From: an uncultured Tissierella sp.
GTDB lineage: Bacteria > Bacillota > Clostridia > Tissierellales > Tissierellaceae
Direction of reading: 5' to 3'
NCBI GenBank assembly: GCA_964482775.1
Contig: CAYZZR010000001.1
Coordinates: 1-36,397, forward strand
Length of the DNA stretch: 36,397 nucleotides
In this document: piece after piece, positions 1,334 through 12,976 of the stretch
Layout of the letters: each line of letters begins with the position of its first letter
Numbering within the stretch: the first letter of the stretch is position 1
Program-made: the position numbers and the translations under genes
Notes under the pieces: generated by a model
Database searches by the model: none
Told to the model about the DNA's origin: nothing
What the model saw: the letters and a program-made list of their open reading frames with translations, nothing else

Positions 1334-1951
1334 TTATATCTTTCTGTAAAGTCCAATGACCTTACCTAGAACAGTTACATCTTTTGAGTAGATTGGTTCC
1401 ATAAATTGATTTTCTGGTTGTAATCTTATGGTATCTTTTTCTTTATAGAATCGCTTTATTGTAGCTTCCTCGCCTAATAATGCGACTATTATTTCTCCGT
1501 TATGTGCTTGATTTTGCTCTTTTACAAGAACTAAATCACCATCTAAAATTCCGGCTTCTATCATGCTTTCGCCTTGAACCTGAAGCATAAATACATCATA
1601 TCCTTCTACCAAATCTAAAGGAACTGGATAGGTCTCTTCAATATTCTCTATAGCTAAAATAGGAGCACCTGCTGTGACTCTACCGATAATAGGTACATCT
1701 AGAGTTTTTTTATGAGCAAAAAGGAAATCATTATCCTTGTCCAAAATTTCTATAGCTCTAGGTTTAGTAGGATCTTTTCTTATGTATCCTTTTGCTTCAA
1801 GTTTTTCAAGATGACCATGAACAGTGGAAGTGGATTTAAGGTTTACACCTTTACAAATCTCTCTTACAGCTGGAGGATATCCCTGTCTTGATAATTCGTT
1901 TTTAATATATAGAAGTATTTCTATCTGTTTTTGTGATAAATCTTCATACAT
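1334..1951 (-). CDS. lexA: SOS repressor LexA
   Basis: w[22 protein letters not shown], Ala-Gly cleavage site (VTAGAP), catalytic Ser (GESM) and Lys (ATIKRF); start moved to ATG 1951 behind SD AGGAGG. Confidence 0.97.
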
Positions 1952-1989
1952 AACACACACCTCCTTGATCTTTCCTGATTCTTTACTTG

Positions 1990-2438: not shown

Positions 2439-2468
2439 AAAAAACTGAAGATTATTCTTCAGTTTTTT
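2439..2468. terminator. Bidirectional terminator between yneA and the recombinase
   Basis: AAAAAACTGAAGA-ttat-TCTTCAGTTTTTT, overlapping the recombinase stop codon. Confidence 0.8.
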
Positions 2469-3432
2469 CTGCTTTTCTATGGGCTAAAGGATTGCTTTTT
2501 ACAGCACTTCTAAGTCTATCATCATCTATATGAGTGTATATTTGAGTAGTTCCAACTGATTCGTGGCCTAAAATCTCTTGAAGTGCTCTAATATCTACAT
2601 TCCCATACTTGTACATCAATGTAGCTGCAGTATGCCTTAATTTATGAGTAGAGTAGATACTAGAATCCAAACCAGCTTTGTCTAAATATCTGTCTATCAT
2701 ATGCTGAATGGCGCGGTTACTCATTCTATGTTTTCTTTTGCTTATAAACAATGCCTTTTTATCATGAACTTCAATAGGCCTTACTGTTAAGTAATCATTG
2801 ATTGCTTCTATACAAGAATCGTTTAAGAATATAGTTCTTTCTTTGTTGCCTTTGCCGATTACCGATAGGGTGTCGTTATTTCTTATTTTATCAATATCTA
2901 TACTAGCAAGTTCGGATAGTCTTAATCCGCAATTTAGAAATAATATGACAATAGCATAATCTCTTTTTCTGTATTCATCGTTTTTATTTTCAAGAATAGT
3001 ATTGAGCAAATGTTGAGCTTCATCTAAAGTTAAATATACTGGGTGACGATCTTCGGTTTTAGGGAACTCTAAGGCTTTAGCGGGATTTTCATCGATTAAA
3101 TTTACCCTTAAACTTAGGTATTCGAAGAAGGATCTGATAGATGATACTTTTCTAGATTTTGTAAAGTTCCCATTATCACGATTTTTATCTACATAGGATA
3201 TGTATGCATGGAGATCCTGGATTTTTATCTTTTTTATAAAATCAAGATCTATATCAGATATATCAATTTGATCAAATTGAAGATCTATATCAACTAACTT
3301 GAATCTTTGTTTCATGAATCTAAAAAATGTTCTCAAATCAAAAGCGTATTCTTTAACAGTATTTGGAGATGTTCCTTTGATAGTTTCCATATAATTTAAG
3401 TAATCTTCCATAATTAGTGGTATTCCATTCAT
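2452..3432 (-). CDS. XerC/XerS-like tyrosine recombinase
   Basis: Catalytic set intact: GLRLSE (R), GKGNKER (K), HKLRH, LGH, TTQIY; N-terminal SAM-like domain (SPNTVKEY); start moved to ATG 3432 behind SD GAGGG. Confidence 0.92.
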   Translation of the reverse strand: MNGIPLIMEDYLNYMETIKGTSPNTVKEYAFDLRTFFRFMKQRFKLVDIDLQFDQIDISDIDLDFIKKIKIQDLHAYISYVDKNRDNGNFTKSRKVSSIRSFFEYLSLRVNLIDENPAKALEFPKTEDRHPVYLTLDEAQHLLNTILENKNDEYRKRDYAIVILFLNCGLRLSELASIDIDKIRNNDTLSVIGKGNKERTIFLNDSCIEAINDYLTVRPIEVHDKKALFISKRKHRMSNRAIQHMIDRYLDKAGLDSSIYSTHKLRHTAATLMYKYGNVDIRALQEILGHESVGTTQIYTHIDDDRLRSAVKSNPLAHRKAEKTEE

Positions 3433-3452
3433 ATTATCCCTCATTTCTGTAT

Positions 3453-3488
3453 ACATTAGTCACAAAATAACTATTTTGTGACTAATGT
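3453..3488. repeat. 36-bp palindrome containing an 11-6-11 dif-like core (candidate recombinase site)
   Basis: ACATTAGTCACAAAATA-ac-TATTTTGTGACTAATGT; core TAGTCACAAAA-TAACTA-TTTTGTGACTA at 3457-3484. The repeat is certain; its function is inferred. Confidence 0.7.
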
Positions 3489-3953: not shown

Positions 3954-5141
3954 TTATATAGTTTCTTTTATTCTATTTAAACCTTCTTCTATATTCTCTA
4001 TTGAAGTTGCATATGAAAGTCTAATATAATTATCATCACCAAATGCTATTCCAGGCACTACAGCAACTCTCCCCTTCTCCAATAATAAATTTGCTACATC
4101 TAATGATGAATCAATTTTTATACCTTGAATTGTTCTACCTTTGAGATTTGATATATTGACCATAATATAGAAAGCTCCTTTTGGTGTTCTACAACTTAAC
4201 CCTTCTATTGAATTGATTTTATCAACCATGTATAGACGTCTTTTGTTAAATTGCAATTTCATTTCCTCTAAACTTGACTGATCCCCTTCTAATCCTGCTA
4301 CGCTAGCATATTGAGCAATAGATGATGGATTTGAAGTTGTATGACTTTGGACATTCCCCATAATTTTTATAATATCCTCATGAGCTGCCGCATAACCAAT
4401 TCTCCATCCCGTCATTGCATACGCTTTAGACATACCATTTATTGTTATTGTTAAGTCATGAATTTCCTTATTTAAAGATGCAATACTGATATGCTTTTCA
4501 TCACCATATATTAGTTTTTCATACAATTCGTCTGACAATACGAATACATTATTGTTTACCGCCCACTTCGCTATATCTTTAATCTCTTTTTCATCATATA
4601 TTGATCCTGTAGGATTACTAGGAGAATTTAGTATAAGAACCTTAGTTCTATCTGTTTGTGCAGCCTCTAAATCCTTAACAGTGTATTTAAAATCATTACT
4701 TTCTTCTGTTTCTATAAATACAGGTACTCCACCAGCAATTTTAACTAACTCAGGATAACTTACCCAATAAGGTACCCCTATTAATACTTCATCACCAGGG
4801 TTTAATACTGCCATAAGTGCATTATAGATAGAATGCTTGCCCCCATTGGAAATAATTATATTATTAGGAGAGTAGTCTAAGTTATTGTCATCTCTTAATT
4901 TCTTACAAATAGCTTTTTTTAATTCAGTTATGCCTGATGTTGGAGTATATTTAGTTAAACCTTCAGTTATAGCTCTGATGCCTTCATCTTGAATATTTTT
5001 TGGTGTATTGAAATCTGGTTCACCAACACTAAAACTAATCACATTTATTCCATTTTCTTTCATTGCCTTGGCTTTTGCTGTAATTTCTAATGTTACAGAT
5101 GGTTCAATTGCCATTCCTTTCTTAGATAAGTCCATATTCAT
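3954..5141 (-). CDS. aspC: Class I PLP-dependent (aspartate) aminotransferase
   Basis: GEPDF, YWVSY, NSPSNPTG, SDELY, NGMSKAYAMTGWRIGY (PLP Lys), IRLSYA; start ATG 5141 behind SD GGAGG. Confidence 0.9.
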   Translation of the reverse strand: MNMDLSKKGMAIEPSVTLEITAKAKAMKENGINVISFSVGEPDFNTPKNIQDEGIRAITEGLTKYTPTSGITELKKAICKKLRDDNNLDYSPNNIIISNGGKHSIYNALMAVLNPGDEVLIGVPYWVSYPELVKIAGGVPVFIETEESNDFKYTVKDLEAAQTDRTKVLILNSPSNPTGSIYDEKEIKDIAKWAVNNNVFVLSDELYEKLIYGDEKHISIASLNKEIHDLTITINGMSKAYAMTGWRIGYAAAHEDIIKIMGNVQSHTTSNPSSIAQYASVAGLEGDQSSLEEMKLQFNKRRLYMVDKINSIEGLSCRTPKGAFYIMVNISNLKGRTIQGIKIDSSLDVANLLLEKGRVAVVPGIAFGDDNYIRLSYATSIENIEEGLNRIKETI

Positions 5142-5164
5142 ATCCAACCTCCAATATATTTGAA

Positions 5165-6730: not shown

Positions 6731-8263
6731 TTATTTAGCATACTCAATAGCTCTAGTCTCCCGGATAACATTAACTTTTATTTGACCTGGATAGTCTAGT
6801 TCGGATTCAATTTTCTTTACAATTTCTCTTGCTGTATGAACAATCTGACTTTCATTTACTTCATCAGGTTTTACTAATATTCTTATTTCACGACCTGCTT
6901 GAATAGCATATGATCTTTCAACTCCATCAAAAGAGTTGGCTATTTCTTCAAGTTTTTCCAATCTTCTTATATAGTTTTCAAGACTTTCACGTCTTGCTCC
7001 TGGTCTTGCAGCTGAAATTGCATCAGCAGCTTGTACAAGCACTGCTTCTATAGTTTGTGGTTCAATATCTCCATGATGAGCAGCTATACCATGTATAACT
7101 TCTTTTGATTCTTTATATCTACGTGCTAAGTCAGCTCCAATATCTACATGAGGACCTTCTACTTCATGATCAACAGCTTTACCTAAATCATGCAATAAAC
7201 CTGCTCTTTTAGCAATTTTCACATCGGCTCCAAGTTCAGCAGCCATTATTCCAGCAAGATGAGATACTTCGATAGAGTGTTTTAGAACGTTTTGACCGTA
7301 ACTTGTTCTATATTTTAATCTACCTAATAACTTTATAATTTCTGGATGTAATCCATGAACACCTGTATCAAATGCTGCTTGTTCGCCTTCTTCACGAATT
7401 ATATTTTCAACTTCTTTCTTAGCCTTTTCAACCATTTCTTCAATTCTTGCAGGATGTATTCTACCATCTACAATCAGTTTCTCAAGTGCTATTCTAGCCA
7501 CTTCTCTTCTAATTGGATCAAATCCTGACAAAACAACAGCTTCTGGGGTATCGTCAATAATTAGATCAATACCAGTCAAAGTCTCAAGTGTCCTAATATT
7601 TCTTCCTTCACGACCTATGATTCGACCCTTCATCTCATCATTTGGTAATGAAACTACTGTTACTGTAGTTTCGGCTACATGATCTGCCGCACATCTCTGA
7701 ATTGCTGTTGTAATAATTTCTCTTGCTTTTTTATCCGCTTCTTCCTTTGCTTTTGCTTCCATATCTTTAATCATAATTGCGGATTCATGAATTATTTCTT
7801 TCTTAATATCACTTAATAATTCTTCCTTTGCTTCTTCGGACGTTAATCCAGAAAGTCGTTCTAGTTCTAAGGTTTGTTTTTCATATAATTCATTAATTGA
7901 TTCTTCTTTTTCTTCAAGATATTTGTTCTTCTTTGCTATTTGTTCTTCTTTTTTCTCTATTGACTCTGATTTTCTATCAAGAGTTTCTTCTTTATGAAGC
8001 ACTCTTCTTTCAAGCTTTTGCACTTCATTTCTACGTTCTCTTGTTTCTTTTTCAGCTTCTGTTCTTGATTTGTGAATCTCTTCTTTTGCTTCTAATAAAA
8101 GCTCCTTTTTACGAGCTTCGCCGTCTTTTTCGGCTTCTTCAGTAATCTTTTTCGCTAACTCTTCAGCGTTCTTTATTTTCCCTTCGCCTATATATCTTCT
8201 TATAAAATAACCAGCGATAATTCCAATAACTAAGCTTAGAATTAAATAAATTAATCTGTCAAT
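6731..8263 (-). CDS. rny: Ribonuclease Y (start probably ATT at 8263; ORF track starts at ATG 8302)
   Basis: N-terminal TM helix, coiled coil, KH domain ([13 protein letters not shown]), HD domain ([26 protein letters not shown]). Confidence 0.96.
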
Positions 8264-8395
8264 AACTAAACACCTCCATTGTATTAAATTTTCAAGTTCC
8301 ATAGTGCATTTACATTCTAATAAAAGTATAAGCAGAGAAAAAATCAGCTCTCAGCTTATTGGATTAATATTACATTGTATGGTTACACACATACT

Positions 8396-8455: not shown

Positions 8456-9109
8456 TTAGCTTTCTATAGGGATACAATTACTACATGATCCATTTATTTC
8501 TACCCTATATGCTTTATCACTTATAGCAGCTAAATGTTGATTATGGGTTACCATTATAATTTGTCTATTGAACATTATAGAAGTGTGCTTTAAAAAATCG
8601 CCAACATTATAAATATAATCTTCACTAACATGTTTTGCTGGCTCATCCAATATTAGTGGTCCCTCAATTTCTGGTTTATGAATTTGCATAAATGCTATTC
8701 TTAGAGCAAGTGAAACTATATCAACGACACCGCCACCACGAGATAATTCAGGTTTAGTTTTAATTGTTAGTCCATCTATTTCATTAACCACATAAAATTC
8801 TGCATTTGCTTTGCCTCTTAATTCTTCTAAATCAATAATAAAACTAATGTTAGATTCAAAAATATACTGAAGACACTTAGTAACCAAAGTTTCGATTTGT
8901 CTTTTTGCCTGATTTCGCGCAAATTCGGATGTTTTTTGAAATATTATAGATACTTTTTCTAACAACTCAATTTCAATTGTTGCTTTTTCAAAATTCGCTA
9001 CATGAACTTCCAATTGTTCAACAAGCTTATCTCTTTTACCCTCTTCGCGAGCAATATATTCTTGTAATTTACTAATTTCTGCTTCTAAATGATCAATATC
9101 AAGATTCAT
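8456..9109 (-). CDS. C-terminal half of a split SbcC/Rad50-like ABC ATPase
   Basis: About 80 aa of coiled coil, then signature-like LSRGGG, Walker B LILDEP and H-loop MVTH; no Walker A. Confidence 0.85.
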   Translation of the reverse strand: MNLDIDHLEAEISKLQEYIAREEGKRDKLVEQLEVHVANFEKATIEIELLEKVSIIFQKTSEFARNQAKRQIETLVTKCLQYIFESNISFIIDLEELRGKANAEFYVVNEIDGLTIKTKPELSRGGGVVDIVSLALRIAFMQIHKPEIEGPLILDEPAKHVSEDYIYNVGDFLKHTSIMFNRQIIMVTHNQHLAAISDKAYRVEINGSCSNCIPIES

Positions 9110-9113
9110 ACTA

Positions 9114-9362
9114 TCACTTCTTTTCTAATAAATCTTTTGGTAATAGTTCATTAGCTTCTATGAATAATCTATTTATTTCAGATGATAATTTGTTAATTTC
9201 AGACTCTAGATCCTGTGGATTAACGTTTAAATCATTTAATTCTTTAATAATTTCATCTTCCTGTCTTTTCAATTGCTCAAGTCTAGCTTCAGCTCTATAT
9301 TTAATAGACTTAGCTTTTTCAAGATTTTCTTTTAATTGACTTAATTCTTTTTCGTAATCCAT
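9114..9362 (-). CDS. Small acidic coiled-coil protein within the split SbcCD-like operon
   Basis: 82 aa with heptad Leu pattern and two helices broken at NVNP; ATG 1 nt after the upstream stop, with a GGGGG SD. Confidence 0.8.
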   Translation of the reverse strand: MDYEKELSQLKENLEKAKSIKYRAEARLEQLKRQEDEIIKELNDLNVNPQDLESEINKLSSEINRLFIEANELLPKDLLEKK

Positions 9363-9363
9363 T

Positions 9364-10812
9364 TTAACCCCCTATATAATGTGTTATTATGTGATTTAAC
9401 TTATCTTCATCTATATCACTTAAGCAAAAAGGACAAACTTCTATCTCTTTTAACAAATTTTGATAATCTTTTAATTGCTTATTTATTGATAAATTTGTCA
9501 TAGATAAAATTCTGCTTTCCTTATCATAAATCTCTTTAATTGTTAACAGATTTTTATAAAGATTACACAGTTTTGTTAACTTGTTAATAAGCTCTTCTAT
9601 TCTCTTACTCTCAATATTAATCTTATCTAGCTCATCGAACTTTCTTATATACTGTTCGCCAATAGTAACACTTTTAATAATTGAATTGTATCTAGATTTT
9701 AAATTATTAAAGCTATTGTAATTGTTAATATTTTTTGCTATATCTTCGCTAATAACAATAGCATCTTTTAATTTTGATAACTTTTCCAGTTTATAATTGA
9801 TTTGAATTTGTTCCGTTTTCCTTGATCTATCTTTAGTATGTAAAATATGAAATCTATTAAACTTTATGTTCATTCTTTCAATCGTAAGTGATAAATCACT
9901 TACTTTATCTAGGTTATTCATCTTAGACTTTATATCCATGTTCCTATTTATGTCCAATCTTACTCTATTAAGATTCATATATGCATTGTATAATATCTTG
10001 TATCTATTATAATTCTTACTTATAGAATTTATTGATTCTTGAAGACTATCAATCATGTCAAATTTCTCTAATATAAGACTTGACCTATGGATTTCTAGTC
10101 TTAAGGCAGATAATTTTAGGGAATTACTTTTTAGAATTTCTAACATTTTTGAATAATCGTTTATTTTGTTTTTTATTGAAGTTAAGCTTAATTGGCGATC
10201 TTTCAATTCATCTAAGTACTCATAATTAACAAGTTCTTCTTTTATATTTGAAATCAATTCTTCCAAACTTTTTCTTGATGAATTTAAGGCTCTGTTGTCC
10301 TTAAGGGCTTCTCTTAATGCATCATCTATTACATTAACTCCTACTAATCTTCCTATAGCACTAGCTCTTGTGCTTGTCTTTTCTGATAACAGAAATGCTC
10401 CTTCAAGCTGTTCACCCAAGTTAATAGCTGCATTTTCATTTGTATCTAAATGAATTTTCCTTATACCTAAAGTTTCAGTTATCTCTTCTGGAATAGTTGA
10501 GCCAAATCCCTCAAAAATCTTTTCTTCTCCCTTATTATTTATGAATATATACGAGTTTTTGGATTTACTTCTATATCTCTTAAGTATAGAAGAATCATTA
10601 AATTCAAGTGTAACACTACACTCCTTTTCCCCTTCACGGATAAAATAATCACCAGAGGGTTCATTATATAAGGCCCATTTAATAGCTCTAATAATAGCAG
10701 ATTTTCCAGAATCAGATGGTCCAACAATTACATTTAGCCTTTCATCTAGATCTATTATGGAATGTTCATGTGATTGAAAGTTTCCTAATATAATTCGCTT
10801 TATATATTTCAT
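9364..10812 (-). CDS. N-terminal half of a split SbcC/Rad50-like ABC ATPase ending in a zinc hook
   Basis: NFQSH, Walker A GPSDSGKS, Q-loop LGEQ, long coiled coil, CPFC 19 aa from the C-terminus; no signature or Walker B; start ATG 10812 behind SD AGGTGA. Confidence 0.88.
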   Translation of the reverse strand: MKYIKRIILGNFQSHEHSIIDLDERLNVIVGPSDSGKSAIIRAIKWALYNEPSGDYFIREGEKECSVTLEFNDSSILKRYRSKSKNSYIFINNKGEEKIFEGFGSTIPEEITETLGIRKIHLDTNENAAINLGEQLEGAFLLSEKTSTRASAIGRLVGVNVIDDALREALKDNRALNSSRKSLEELISNIKEELVNYEYLDELKDRQLSLTSIKNKINDYSKMLEILKSNSLKLSALRLEIHRSSLILEKFDMIDSLQESINSISKNYNRYKILYNAYMNLNRVRLDINRNMDIKSKMNNLDKVSDLSLTIERMNIKFNRFHILHTKDRSRKTEQIQINYKLEKLSKLKDAIVISEDIAKNINNYNSFNNLKSRYNSIIKSVTIGEQYIRKFDELDKINIESKRIEELINKLTKLCNLYKNLLTIKEIYDKESRILSMTNLSINKQLKDYQNLLKEIEVCPFCLSDIDEDKLNHIITHYIGG

Positions 10813-10813
10813 A

Positions 10814-11797
10814 TTAATCACCTGATGAACCTCTCATTTGTATTTCAGCAATTCTTCTCAAAGCCTCTATCTTAACTTCATCTGATACACCTTCTGATAT
10901 AGATACCTCGATTAAAATATCATTTATATCCATTTTATCATAATCTAGTGAAGAGTCTATTGTTTGCTTAAATTCATATAATCTTTCGCTCTTAAATACA
11001 AATTTTTCAACTTCACTTCGATCCAGTATTAATTCACCTTTTAAAGCAGATTTTAGTTGAACATATTCGATATTTATCTCTTTATTTAAATCTATAATCA
11101 CTACCTGAGGCATTCTATCAATCTCTCTTAAACTATTTGTAATTCTTACTATACTTCCAGGATTAATGAAATATTTGTTGTCAATTTTGATTGTTTTAAA
11201 TCCTGAGTGATAATGCCCTGATAAAGTAATATCAGCTAAAGTATCTTTAATATCTTCAACTAAAGTATAAGGAATCCCTTTTACAAAAGGCTTATCTAAA
11301 AGCATACCATGTACCACATGTATTGAATAATCTATGTCATCTGCTACATTATCTAATATATAATTACTCCTATTTAGGGAAGTATCTATGTCATATATAT
11401 AGGGTTGTCCTGTAAGTTGTATCTTTATTCCATCCTTCTCTAATAATATTTTTGTATCCTTATTAATAACACTAATAAAATCTAAATCATCCAATAATCC
11501 TAATATTGTTCTATTAAGTGTATCTGGATTATGACCAAAAATATCGTGATTTCCACTAACGATATAGAAGGGGATTTTAATATTTTTTAGAAGTTTTGCA
11601 AATTTACTTACAGTAGATATAGATATGTCAGGTCTGTCAAAAAGATCTCCGCCATGAATAAGAAAATCCACATTTTGTTCTTCAATTATTTTTATAATTT
11701 CAGTTATTTTATTTTCTAAAGTCTGAACAAAATCATCTTTTCGATTTTTGGGAGAAGTTCCTCTTATATGTGTATCTGTTAAGTATAGTATTTTCAA
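10814..11797 (-). CDS. Mre11/SbcD-like metallophosphoesterase nuclease
   Basis: Motifs TDTH, GGDLFD, GNHD, VHG, GHYH, NPGS; TTG start 7 nt after SD AGGAGTG. Confidence 0.9.
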   Translation of the reverse strand: MKILYLTDTHIRGTSPKNRKDDFVQTLENKITEIIKIIEEQNVDFLIHGGDLFDRPDISISTVSKFAKLLKNIKIPFYIVSGNHDIFGHNPDTLNRTILGLLDDLDFISVINKDTKILLEKDGIKIQLTGQPYIYDIDTSLNRSNYILDNVADDIDYSIHVVHGMLLDKPFVKGIPYTLVEDIKDTLADITLSGHYHSGFKTIKIDNKYFINPGSIVRITNSLREIDRMPQVVIIDLNKEINIEYVQLKSALKGELILDRSEVEKFVFKSERLYEFKQTIDSSLDYDKMDINDILIEVSISEGVSDEVKIEALRRIAEIQMRGSSGD

Positions 11798-11811: not shown

Positions 11812-11840
11812 AAATTAAAACCTCCTATAAAGGAGGTTTT
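11812..11840 (-). terminator. Terminator-like hairpin between recA and the nuclease gene
   Basis: AAAACCTCCT-ttat-AGGAGGTTTT-AATTT; short, interrupted U tract. Confidence 0.55.
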
Positions 11841-11852
11841 GTATAGTAAATA

Positions 11853-12887
11853 TTACTCCTTGGAATTTATCTTTTCAAGGGAGTCAGAATCTTTTAATAA
11901 TCCATATTTATTTCTTATTTTTAGTTCTATTTCTTCTGCTATTTCAGGATTAGCACTTAAAAACTCCTTAGAATTTTCTCTACCTTGTCCAAGTTTTTGA
12001 TCATTGTAACTGAACCAAGCACCAGCTTTATTTACTATTTCAGCAGTTACTCCCGCGTCTAAAATACTACCTATTTTAGAAATACCCTCACCATACATTA
12101 TGTCAAACTCTGCTTGCTTGAAGGGTGGAGCTACCTTATTTTTGACAACTTTCACTCTTGTTCTATTTCCTATTATTTGATCACCTTGTTTTATAGAATC
12201 AACCCTACGTATATCTAATCTAACACTTGCATAGAATTTTAATGCTCTCCCGCCTGTAGTTGTTTCTGGATTACCAAACATAACCCCTATTTTTTCTCTT
12301 AATTGGTTTATAAATACAATGGTTGTATTAGATTTATTCACTGCACCAGTTAGTTTTCTTAGTGCTTGGGACATAAGTCTTGCTTGTAAACCCATATGAC
12401 TATCTCCCATTTCTCCTTCAATTTCAGCTTTTGGAACTAATGCTGCTACTGAGTCAACTATAATTACATCAACAGCACCACTTCGAACTAAAGCTTCAGT
12501 TATTTCTAGCGCTTGTTCTCCAGTGTCAGGTTGCGATATTACTAATTCCTCAATTTTTACCCCTAACTTTTCTGCATATCCAGGATCTAGAGCATGTTCA
12601 GCATCAACAAATGCTGCATTTCCACCAAGCTTTTGCGCTTCTGCGATAATATGAAGGGCAATTGTTGTTTTACCGGAAGATTCTGGTCCATAAATCTCTA
12701 TTATTCTGCCTCTTGGTACTCCACCAATTCCTAAAGCAAGATCTAAATCTAAAGATCCAGTTGGAATATAGTCTAAATCAAGTTTAGCACCCTCGCCTAG
12801 ACGCATAATAGATCCCTTACCAAATTGTTTTTCTATCTGACTTAATGCTAAGTCCAATGCTTTTTTCTTTTCGCTCATATCTGCCAT
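11853..12887 (-). CDS. recA: Recombinase RecA
   Basis: [59 protein letters not shown]. Confidence 0.99.
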
Positions 12888-12926: not shown

Positions 12927-12976
12927 GAACGCTAGTTCCATAAGTATATATTACCTTAGTCAAATAAATAAGTCAA
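12927..12976 (-). promoter_or_regulatory. recA promoter with LexA box
   Basis: Perfect GAACGCTAGTTC at 12927-12938; TTGACT-17 nt-TAATAT at 12976-12948 on the minus strand. Confidence 0.8.

Follow-up and report, generated by a model that had tools for sequence, protein, structure and literature searches.

A four-gene operon lying between recA and rny, in a 36,397-nucleotide stretch of DNA from an uncultured Tissierella sp. (contig CAYZZR010000001.1 of assembly GCA_964482775.1; this entire stretch is hereafter "the window"), encodes an Mre11-type nuclease together with a Rad50-type ATPase that is distributed over three separate chains. That this three-way division of Rad50 is natural we regard as practically certain. 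It is also a good likelihood that the four proteins form a DNA-end-processing complex, working with HerA-NurA and RecA, that takes the place of SbcCD. The genes, denoted (a) to (d) in the order of the operon, are as follows.

10814–11797, minus strand: (a), Mre11/SbcD-type calcineurin-like nuclease; 327 amino acids, TTG start, short helical C-terminal tail
9364–10812, minus strand: (b), Rad50 N-half; 482 amino acids, ATG at 10812, CPFC (predicted hook) at 460–463, 19-residue helical tail
9114–9362, minus strand: (c), small subunit; 82 amino acids; helix, [LF]G[VI]xP turn, helix
8456–9109, minus strand: (d), Rad50 C-half; 217 amino acids; ~60-residue helix, Walker B, H-loop

All four minus-strand reading frames are intact and are separated by gaps of 1, 1 and 4 nucleotides, so that the coordinates and flanks given in a preliminary description of the window check out. 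That description had each piece begin with its own ATG, when the nuclease in fact starts with TTG, and had chain b end at CPFC, beyond which it continues for 19 residues; the start of b is most likely the ATG at 10812, the reading-frame caller having placed it at a GTG at 10821. The clear ribosome-binding sites claimed for b and c are borne out (−8.2 and −10.5 kcal/mol, that of c being the strongest of the four genes), while that of d is weak at −4.9 kcal/mol. Among PHROGs families the nuclease falls in phrog_100, and each ATPase piece has a full-length family of its own, phrog_16465 for b (7e-72), phrog_18563 for c (2.5e-8) and phrog_15167 for d (3e-62). The closest named C-halves to chain d are from Tissierella, at 70–73%.

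The natural character of the split is apparent from the relatives. In a set of 41 genomes, the window's own among them, the C-half has a strong match in 32, and in every one of these it is a stand-alone open frame of 206–242 amino acids; the close relatives, which the preliminary description had proposed to check for a fused sbcC, thus carry the C-half separately. All 30 loci fetched have c ahead of d, and a b ending in CPxC ahead of c wherever the locus extends far enough (28/30). Across a phylum sample of 401 genomes, taking a match at E ≤ 1e-30 as positive, the system occurs in 61 genomes from 29 families, and a profile search at the same threshold returned 854 clusters, the best 150 of the 854 being 144–288 amino acids long. 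Of 80 named loci, 72 hold all four genes, 70 hold recA and 77 hold rny, the other eight being without one or two genes within the stretch fetched. A search for relatives that exceed d in length came back empty, a weak negative, since the same search missed a 700-residue fusion described below.

The evidence from the DNA itself points the same way. Contigs assembled from three DNA runs, belonging to three different studies, span both junctions and show zero insertions or deletions in the four genes, which answers the second check that had been proposed. The spacing at the junctions varies through all reading frames among relatives, and the phages phBC6A51, vB_BboS-125 and 0305phi8-36 have the pieces separated by inserted genes of unrelated kinds. 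Because whole phage genes sit between them, recoding of the pieces into one chain is excluded. Comparison with nine relatives gives proportions of nonsynonymous differences (pN) of 0.16–0.20 against synonymous proportions (pS) of ~0.71 for c, d and the head portion of b, and pN 0.48 against pS 0.63 for the arm of b; purifying selection acts on c, d and the b head, and far less on the arm. Were the window read alone, the 1- and 4-nucleotide gaps would resemble decay or mis-assembly of sbcC, or a single protein made by frameshifting or read-through, and broken copies do occur in a few relatives (L067, L107, L157, L170), but the reads, the junction spacing, the phage insertions and the selection on the genes together rule out sequencing error, decay and recoding to the point that this reading is hardly credible; the preliminary description, too, had argued against decay.

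The nuclease carries all of the expected motifs (DTH, GDLFD, GNHD, VHG and GHYH), as had been claimed for it, matches Pfam Metallophos at 2e-15, and has as its best sequence match in the PDB the Mre11 of P. furiosus (1ii7, 8e-7). The four phosphoesterase motifs that were tested by regular expression are jointly present in 122 of 164 loci. It scores below the curated SbcD cut-off (TIGR00619, 37.2 vs 77.65 bits) and below the cut-offs of the archaeal Mre11 models (31–38 vs 500–600). In Mre11/SbcD nucleases a C-terminal helix-loop-helix binds the coil of Rad50; the tail here is short and helical-looking, and the PDB matches to Mre11 cover residues 1–139 only. Natural fusions of the nuclease with b exist among relatives.

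The ATPase head is likewise recognizable in parts. Chain b features a Walker A motif, GPSDSGKS, and a Q-loop at Q135, and matches AAA_23 at 1e-17; in an alignment of 106 rows, picked for having a CxxC, residues G31, G36, K37, Q135, C460, P461 and C463 are invariant. The CPFC at 460–463 is the predicted zinc hook; a CxxC is absent from 6 of 151 loci. Chain d contributes Walker B, LILDE (D155/E156), and the H-loop, H189. Its best NCBIfam match is Rad50_Sulf (4e-10), with no SbcC model among the NCBIfam matches, and its best PDB matches are archaeal Rad50 proteins. Here, too, Rad50 proteins are the best Foldseek matches to an AlphaFold2 (AF2) model of chain b.

That b and d form one head, as the preliminary description had proposed, is very probable, and one argument comes from rare armless relatives, of which only two close clusters were found. 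In one (G439), the nuclease is accompanied by a 368-residue protein in which the b head passes via a short hairpin into the d domain; in the other (G123), nuclease, b and d are fused into a single 700-residue protein. The AF2 model of the G439 fusion has a mean predicted local distance difference (pLDDT) score of 90.5 and a predicted template-modeling (pTM) score of 0.89, and it aligns with P. furiosus Rad50 (3qku) at Z 27.8 and a root-mean-square deviation of 5.2 over 333 residues, a result tied with SMC heads (Z 25–28 over ~330 residues for Rad50 and SMC heads alike). The fused halves are thus predicted to fold as a complete Rad50/SMC-type ATP-binding cassette (ABC) head; this fold test concerns the relative, the window's own chains lying outside that model. 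Inter-chain covariation gives a weak antiparallel b–d peak at i+j ~221–229, consistent with the fused hairpin, in a signal that is noisy overall. The armless, hookless forms (L245:7873-9940 for G439 and L246:8652-10754 for G123) lie directly upstream of addB-addA.

From the sequences and the company that these genes keep, a role in DNA-end processing during recombinational repair appears quite likely. Wider gene neighborhoods, covering 39 of the 60 other positive genomes of the phylum sample, include 16 with a nurA-herA-nuclease-b-c-d operon, 13 with recA and/or rny flanking, five with the phage order b-c-d-nuclease (three of these five beside a RecD2-like helicase), three with partial or second copies, and the two armless forms followed by addB-addA. 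NurA is found in 51 of the 61 genomes with the split system vs 17 of the 340 without it, and canonical SbcD is present in 15 of those 17. Canonical SbcD, on the other hand, occurs in 4/61 genomes with the system vs 165/340 without; three of the four carry copies in prophage order, and the fourth an armless form. In the 41-genome set SbcD exceeds its cut-off in seven of the nine genomes that lack the system (one being borderline) and in none of the 32 that have it. The two thus nearly exclude each other, which suggests that their roles overlap. In archaea, NurA-HerA and Mre11-Rad50 act jointly in end resection, according to passages of PMC9960219, and the partner pattern points to archaeal-style break resection. 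In the genome of the window itself (82% complete) nurA-herA lie on contig C134 and addB on C29, and no SbcD exceeds the cut-off; all four functions are thus present, with herA-nurA unlinked to the four-gene operon. The SbcCD-like identity given in the preliminary description holds as to type, Mre11-Rad50, and not as to kinship, the closest solved relatives and gene partners being those of archaeal Mre11-Rad50/HerA-NurA.

Several observations count against this assignment. The co-occurrence counts come from kin genomes (61 genomes, 29 families) and are to be read as patterns rather than exact odds, Fisher P values drawn from them being overstated. The window's own genome has two other nuclease plus SMC-like pairs, so that further SbcD-like nucleases are present. 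The operon is probably insulated, by the hairpin described further on, from the LexA-controlled promoter of recA, so that its induction by damage cannot be taken for granted. Finally, the signature Ser and the D-loop Asp of the ATPase are replaced family-wide, and because these contacts are replaced, normal ATP cycling cannot be assumed. The two additional pairs (L247:3336-6888 on contig C2 and L248:2731-6253 on C22) each consist of a metallophosphoesterase and an ~808-residue SMC-like ATPase (AAA_27), and we take them to resemble YhaO/YhaN.

The arm of b is ~290 residues long, helical, and built of 47-residue repeats: autocorrelation across 56 b proteins peaks at lags 47 and 94, the lag-47 peak of the window's own protein is reached by 4 of 1000 shuffles, and the hydrophobic period is 3.36 (47/14) vs the 3.5 of a plain heptad. 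The AF2 model of b consists of long helices with breaks at 197, 298–303 and 347. In 155 of 163 distinct loci the arm length falls within 4 residues of 282 + 47k, with 1, 3, 3, 19, 118 and 11 loci at k = −4, −3, −2, −1, 0 and +1, respectively; 37 of the 45 non-modal arms are on this ladder, and a scan of periods from 30 to 70 peaks at 47–49. Four of 11 sister-pair comparisons show clean single indels, of 94, 47, 47 and 46 residues, while the d helix, and c in those pairs where it was detected, hardly change; between L167 and L171, for example, a single 94-residue block differs in b, while c and d are 90% and 86% identical, both ungapped. Changes in arm length fall on several separate branches of a quick tree, in which the window is not a row and from which most Tissierellia rows were left out, and the aligned part of c is 70–85 residues in every arm class. 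Arm length, then, evolves in 47-residue steps while c and the C-half stay constant.

This bears on stoichiometry. Where the two strands of a Rad50 arm are about equal in length, here ~290 residues run out (b) vs ~160 back (c plus d). The fused hairpin, traced in a 19-row alignment and in the AF2 model, sets d1–62 against ~b160–222, with the tail helix able to take up ~20 residues beneath the hook, so that ~218 arm residues are left for an 82-residue chain c, a surplus of about three repeats. With one chain of each, ~140 arm residues would remain unpaired; the halves, described earlier as the pieces of one Rad50, are indeed separate chains and do not sum to one Rad50, the b arm extending ~140 residues beyond c plus d. 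In the 141-residue arm class, by contrast, the gap is ~77 residues, i.e., one copy of c, and in this class there is a viral protein (L194:4645-6960) that joins nuclease, N-half and, after the hook, a c-like segment (the match is weak, at E 0.04 within a small set); it is the only b+c fusion seen, and no other of 163 loci has a long tail after the hook. From the surplus arm left by one chain each, the one-copy gap and this fusion, we infer about one extra c per repeat. We would accordingly suggest, tentatively, that several copies of c line each arm, perhaps four in the present case. The arm may on this same tentative footing be a tiled structure, a chain of 47-residue repeats roofed by ~1 + (arm − 141)/47 copies of c (four here). 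In such an arm the C-half would conceivably close off the head end and the hook helix the tip, and provision of the separate half could turn the ATPase on or off.

Chain c itself is conserved in the 106-row alignment, and an ESM Atlas search for it returned unnamed clusters only. Its first helix is similar to the helix at the N-terminus of d (hhalign 68.8%, with the proviso that coiled coils look alike easily), a likeness that overlapping tiles would need. Profile comparison (hhalign 3%) does not back a derivation of c as a hookless copy of the b tip. In three groups of loci the ribosome-binding site of c surpasses that of d in 70/70, 27/36 and 27/36 cases, and it is the strongest in 57/70 Tissierellia loci and in 15/36 and 9/36 elsewhere. 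A number of points speak against several copies or are neutral: eight of the 45 non-modal arms are off the ladder, seven of the 11 sister-pair alignments have scattered gaps, outside Tissierellia c has a better ribosome-binding site than b in only 17/36 and 19/36 loci, the codon bias of c is not different from that of the other genes, and inter-chain covariation gave no clear b–c register.

A somewhat doubtful but real possibility, with the same repair role, is that b, c and d assemble 1:1:1, one c bridging one segment of the arm and the repeats left over on two b chains forming a parallel coil with each other as far as the shared hook. The arm period of 3.36 rather than the plain-heptad 3.5 would agree with this, as would the missing b–c register and the weak constraint on the arm, and a b–b coil would free the repeats to vary. 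It leaves unexplained, however, why the step should be 47, which roughly matches c's first helix in length, and why the one b+c fusion (with its weak match) should be found only with a 141-residue arm; the prominence of the c ribosome-binding site in most Tissierellia loci also speaks against it.

A second question concerns what the head does with ATP. The preliminary description had assigned to chain d an ABC signature along with Walker B and the H-loop; the latter two are kept, and the signature is degenerate, chain d reading RGGGV there and PAKHVS at the D-loop. In place of LSGG(E/Q), 133 of 174 distinct C-halves have RGGGV (108/174) or RGGGI (25/174), and the D-loop lacks its Leu-Asp, reading PAKHVS in 97/178, with the other 11 commonest variants also ending in Ser. 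In P. furiosus Rad50, according to passages of PMC7049730, the closed dimer makes its two contacts through the signature and the D-loop, and mutation of the signature there abolishes both dimerization and ATP hydrolysis. It is thus conceivable, though in our view unlikely, that the head of the split system binds ATP and barely hydrolyzes it, the complex being mainly a tether or a loader of HerA-NurA with an ATP-independent nuclease. RGGGV and PAKHVS are family-wide, and signature-mutant Rad50 is reported in the same passages to still tether ends (PMC7049730). On the other hand, Walker A, the Q-loop, the Asp-Glu of Walker B and the H-loop are invariant or nearly so, and the replacement residues R124, K159 and S162 are themselves conserved, which suggests that the site has been rewired rather than inactivated. 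The ATP cycle would, as judged from these motifs, be either rewired or weak.

Less probable still is an anti-phage or anti-plasmid sensor of DNA ends, Lamassu-like and derived from SbcCD. According to passages of PMC12663957, Lamassu arose from SbcCD and acts as a sensor of DNA ends; the ATPase motifs here are non-canonical, and there is a weak PADLOC match to LmuB (1.7e-15 over b residues 6–103); among the matches listed, no LmuA or LmuC model hits any of the four proteins. The split system is nonetheless present in single copy at a fixed housekeeping site in its own family (23/24 relatives), has no effector gene, sits in phages with replication and recombination genes, and excludes canonical SbcD in the manner of a substitute.

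Returning to end processing as the preferred role, the complex might be assembled and operate in the following way. Chain d would dock on b through a short antiparallel coil beside the head (~b160–222 with d1–62), two b chains would be joined at their CPxC tips via a zinc ion, and the nuclease would bind at the root of the coil. The remaining arm of b would be covered by copies of c, about one per 47-residue repeat beyond the minimal arm (some four here). Driven by ATP, the two heads would then close on a DNA end that is blocked or forms a hairpin and so license the nuclease to cut, and HerA-NurA (encoded elsewhere in the genome) or AddAB would extend resection for RecA.

The surroundings of the operon include the following features.

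11853–12887, minus strand: recA, conserved upstream neighbor (Pfam RecA)
11815–11838, minus strand: hairpin plus U-run in the interval from recA to the nuclease gene, a likely terminator
12927–12938, unstranded: LexA-type box GAACGCTAGTTC upstream of recA, exact match
6731–8302, minus strand: rny, other flank of the four-gene operon

The segment 11795–11860 folds at −17.6 kcal/mol (z −2.75), and a hairpin plus T-run is found in 50 of 70 named loci; the terminator scan did not list the hairpin at 11815–11838. The hairpin likely limits read-through from recA. The same CCTCC/GGAGG stem is seen in 12 printed loci, and its 5' arm could also pair with the ribosome-binding site of the nuclease gene ~10 nucleotides downstream. 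The box upstream of recA matches the LexA-type consensus, and a relaxed form of it is upstream of recA in all 67 loci with enough sequence. A scan of the window for promoters came out at chance level (33 vs 37.9). Contigs of the RNA-labeled run X16 lie over recA, with scattered short ones over the operon; such contigs show neither transcription nor its level. Elsewhere in the window, lexA (1334–1960, minus strand) and a divergent gene for a 102-residue LysM protein form an ordinary SOS layout (1334–2430), with GAAC-N4-GTTC boxes at 2017, 2057 and 2087 between them, one exact and two with one mismatch; a tyrosine recombinase gene (Phage_integrase family, 2452–3456) lies beside the LysM gene. 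Another exact LexA-type box, at 4637–4648 inside an aminotransferase gene (3954–5147), is probably due to chance, the one-mismatch count being at chance level.

The family extends well into phages. An alignment scan found 63 viral loci with a strong match, unlike single-protein scans of viral contigs, which gave no matches, and in phages the family keeps company with genes for replication and recombination, RecD2-like helicases and phage recA being examples. Two cases from the literature, gp8 of 0305phi8-36 and BC1852/BC1857 of prophage phBC6A51, belong to this split-Rad50 family. For the Mre11/Rad50 fusion of 0305phi8-36 it was stated that one P-loop segment "was not observed" (PMC3175470), and BC1852 and BC1857 were called SbcC-like and SbcD-like (PMC3519770); the passages of these two papers do not link the missing half to gp5/BC1855 or to the small gp7/BC1854. 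In large-phage loci (L214, L216, L220-L227) the arms are short (90–185) and a phage recA is adjacent; in L220, L221, L223 and L224 the small subunit is undetected and the C-half frame is longer. Relatives of the C-half, at 32–40% identity, are also carried by 10 large non-mobilizable plasmids of Bacillales and Clostridia (H10-H19). A literature search found no description of a three-gene Rad50, and the terms searched brought up no passage about a three-gene ATPase in PMC7824862, PMC2147016 or PMC12663957; published ABC-ATPase classifications and their supplements might already list the family.

Rad50, SbcC and SMC proteins have been taken to need one continuous fold-back chain, and here a widespread family does without it. 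The split system is likely the break-processing pathway of ~15% of the sampled phylum (61/401 genomes), most of them without canonical SbcD, and it explains phage genes annotated as an unrelated "ATPase", "exonuclease" and "hypothetical protein". If the tiling of the arm by copies of c is true, arm length would evolve in 7-nm steps by single indels, nature would have furnished a series of arms (~90 to 330 residues, plus armless) on the same head, and the role of coiled-coil length and of the hook in the activation of Mre11-Rad50 would become directly testable.

Of the known systems, bacterial SbcCD (E. coli, B. subtilis) is alike in pairing a calcineurin-like nuclease with a CxxC-bearing SMC-like ATPase, and differs in that the window's nuclease is shorter and below TIGR00619, and its ATPase is in three genes. 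Lamassu LmuB, as described in passages of PMC12663957, is, like the split system, SbcC-derived with altered coil length and motifs; Lamassu, however, has a single-chain LmuB, an effector and LmuC, whereas the split system keeps an Mre11-type nuclease at a housekeeping site. For every catalytic part the best matches, in sequence and in fold, are to archaeal Mre11-Rad50, the partner of HerA-NurA (P. furiosus, M. jannaschii, Sulfolobus; 3qku, 3aux, 1ii7), with which the split system also shares the CxxC hook and the four-function gene set, the latter as a single operon in 16 genomes. The split system differs from it in having three chains, unequal strands, 47-residue repeats and an altered signature and D-loop, and, in the window's own genome, in that herA-nurA is unlinked and the operon follows recA. 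It appears, in sum, to work like archaeal Mre11-Rad50 while departing from Rad50/SbcC in three defining features: the single chain, the signature and the D-loop.

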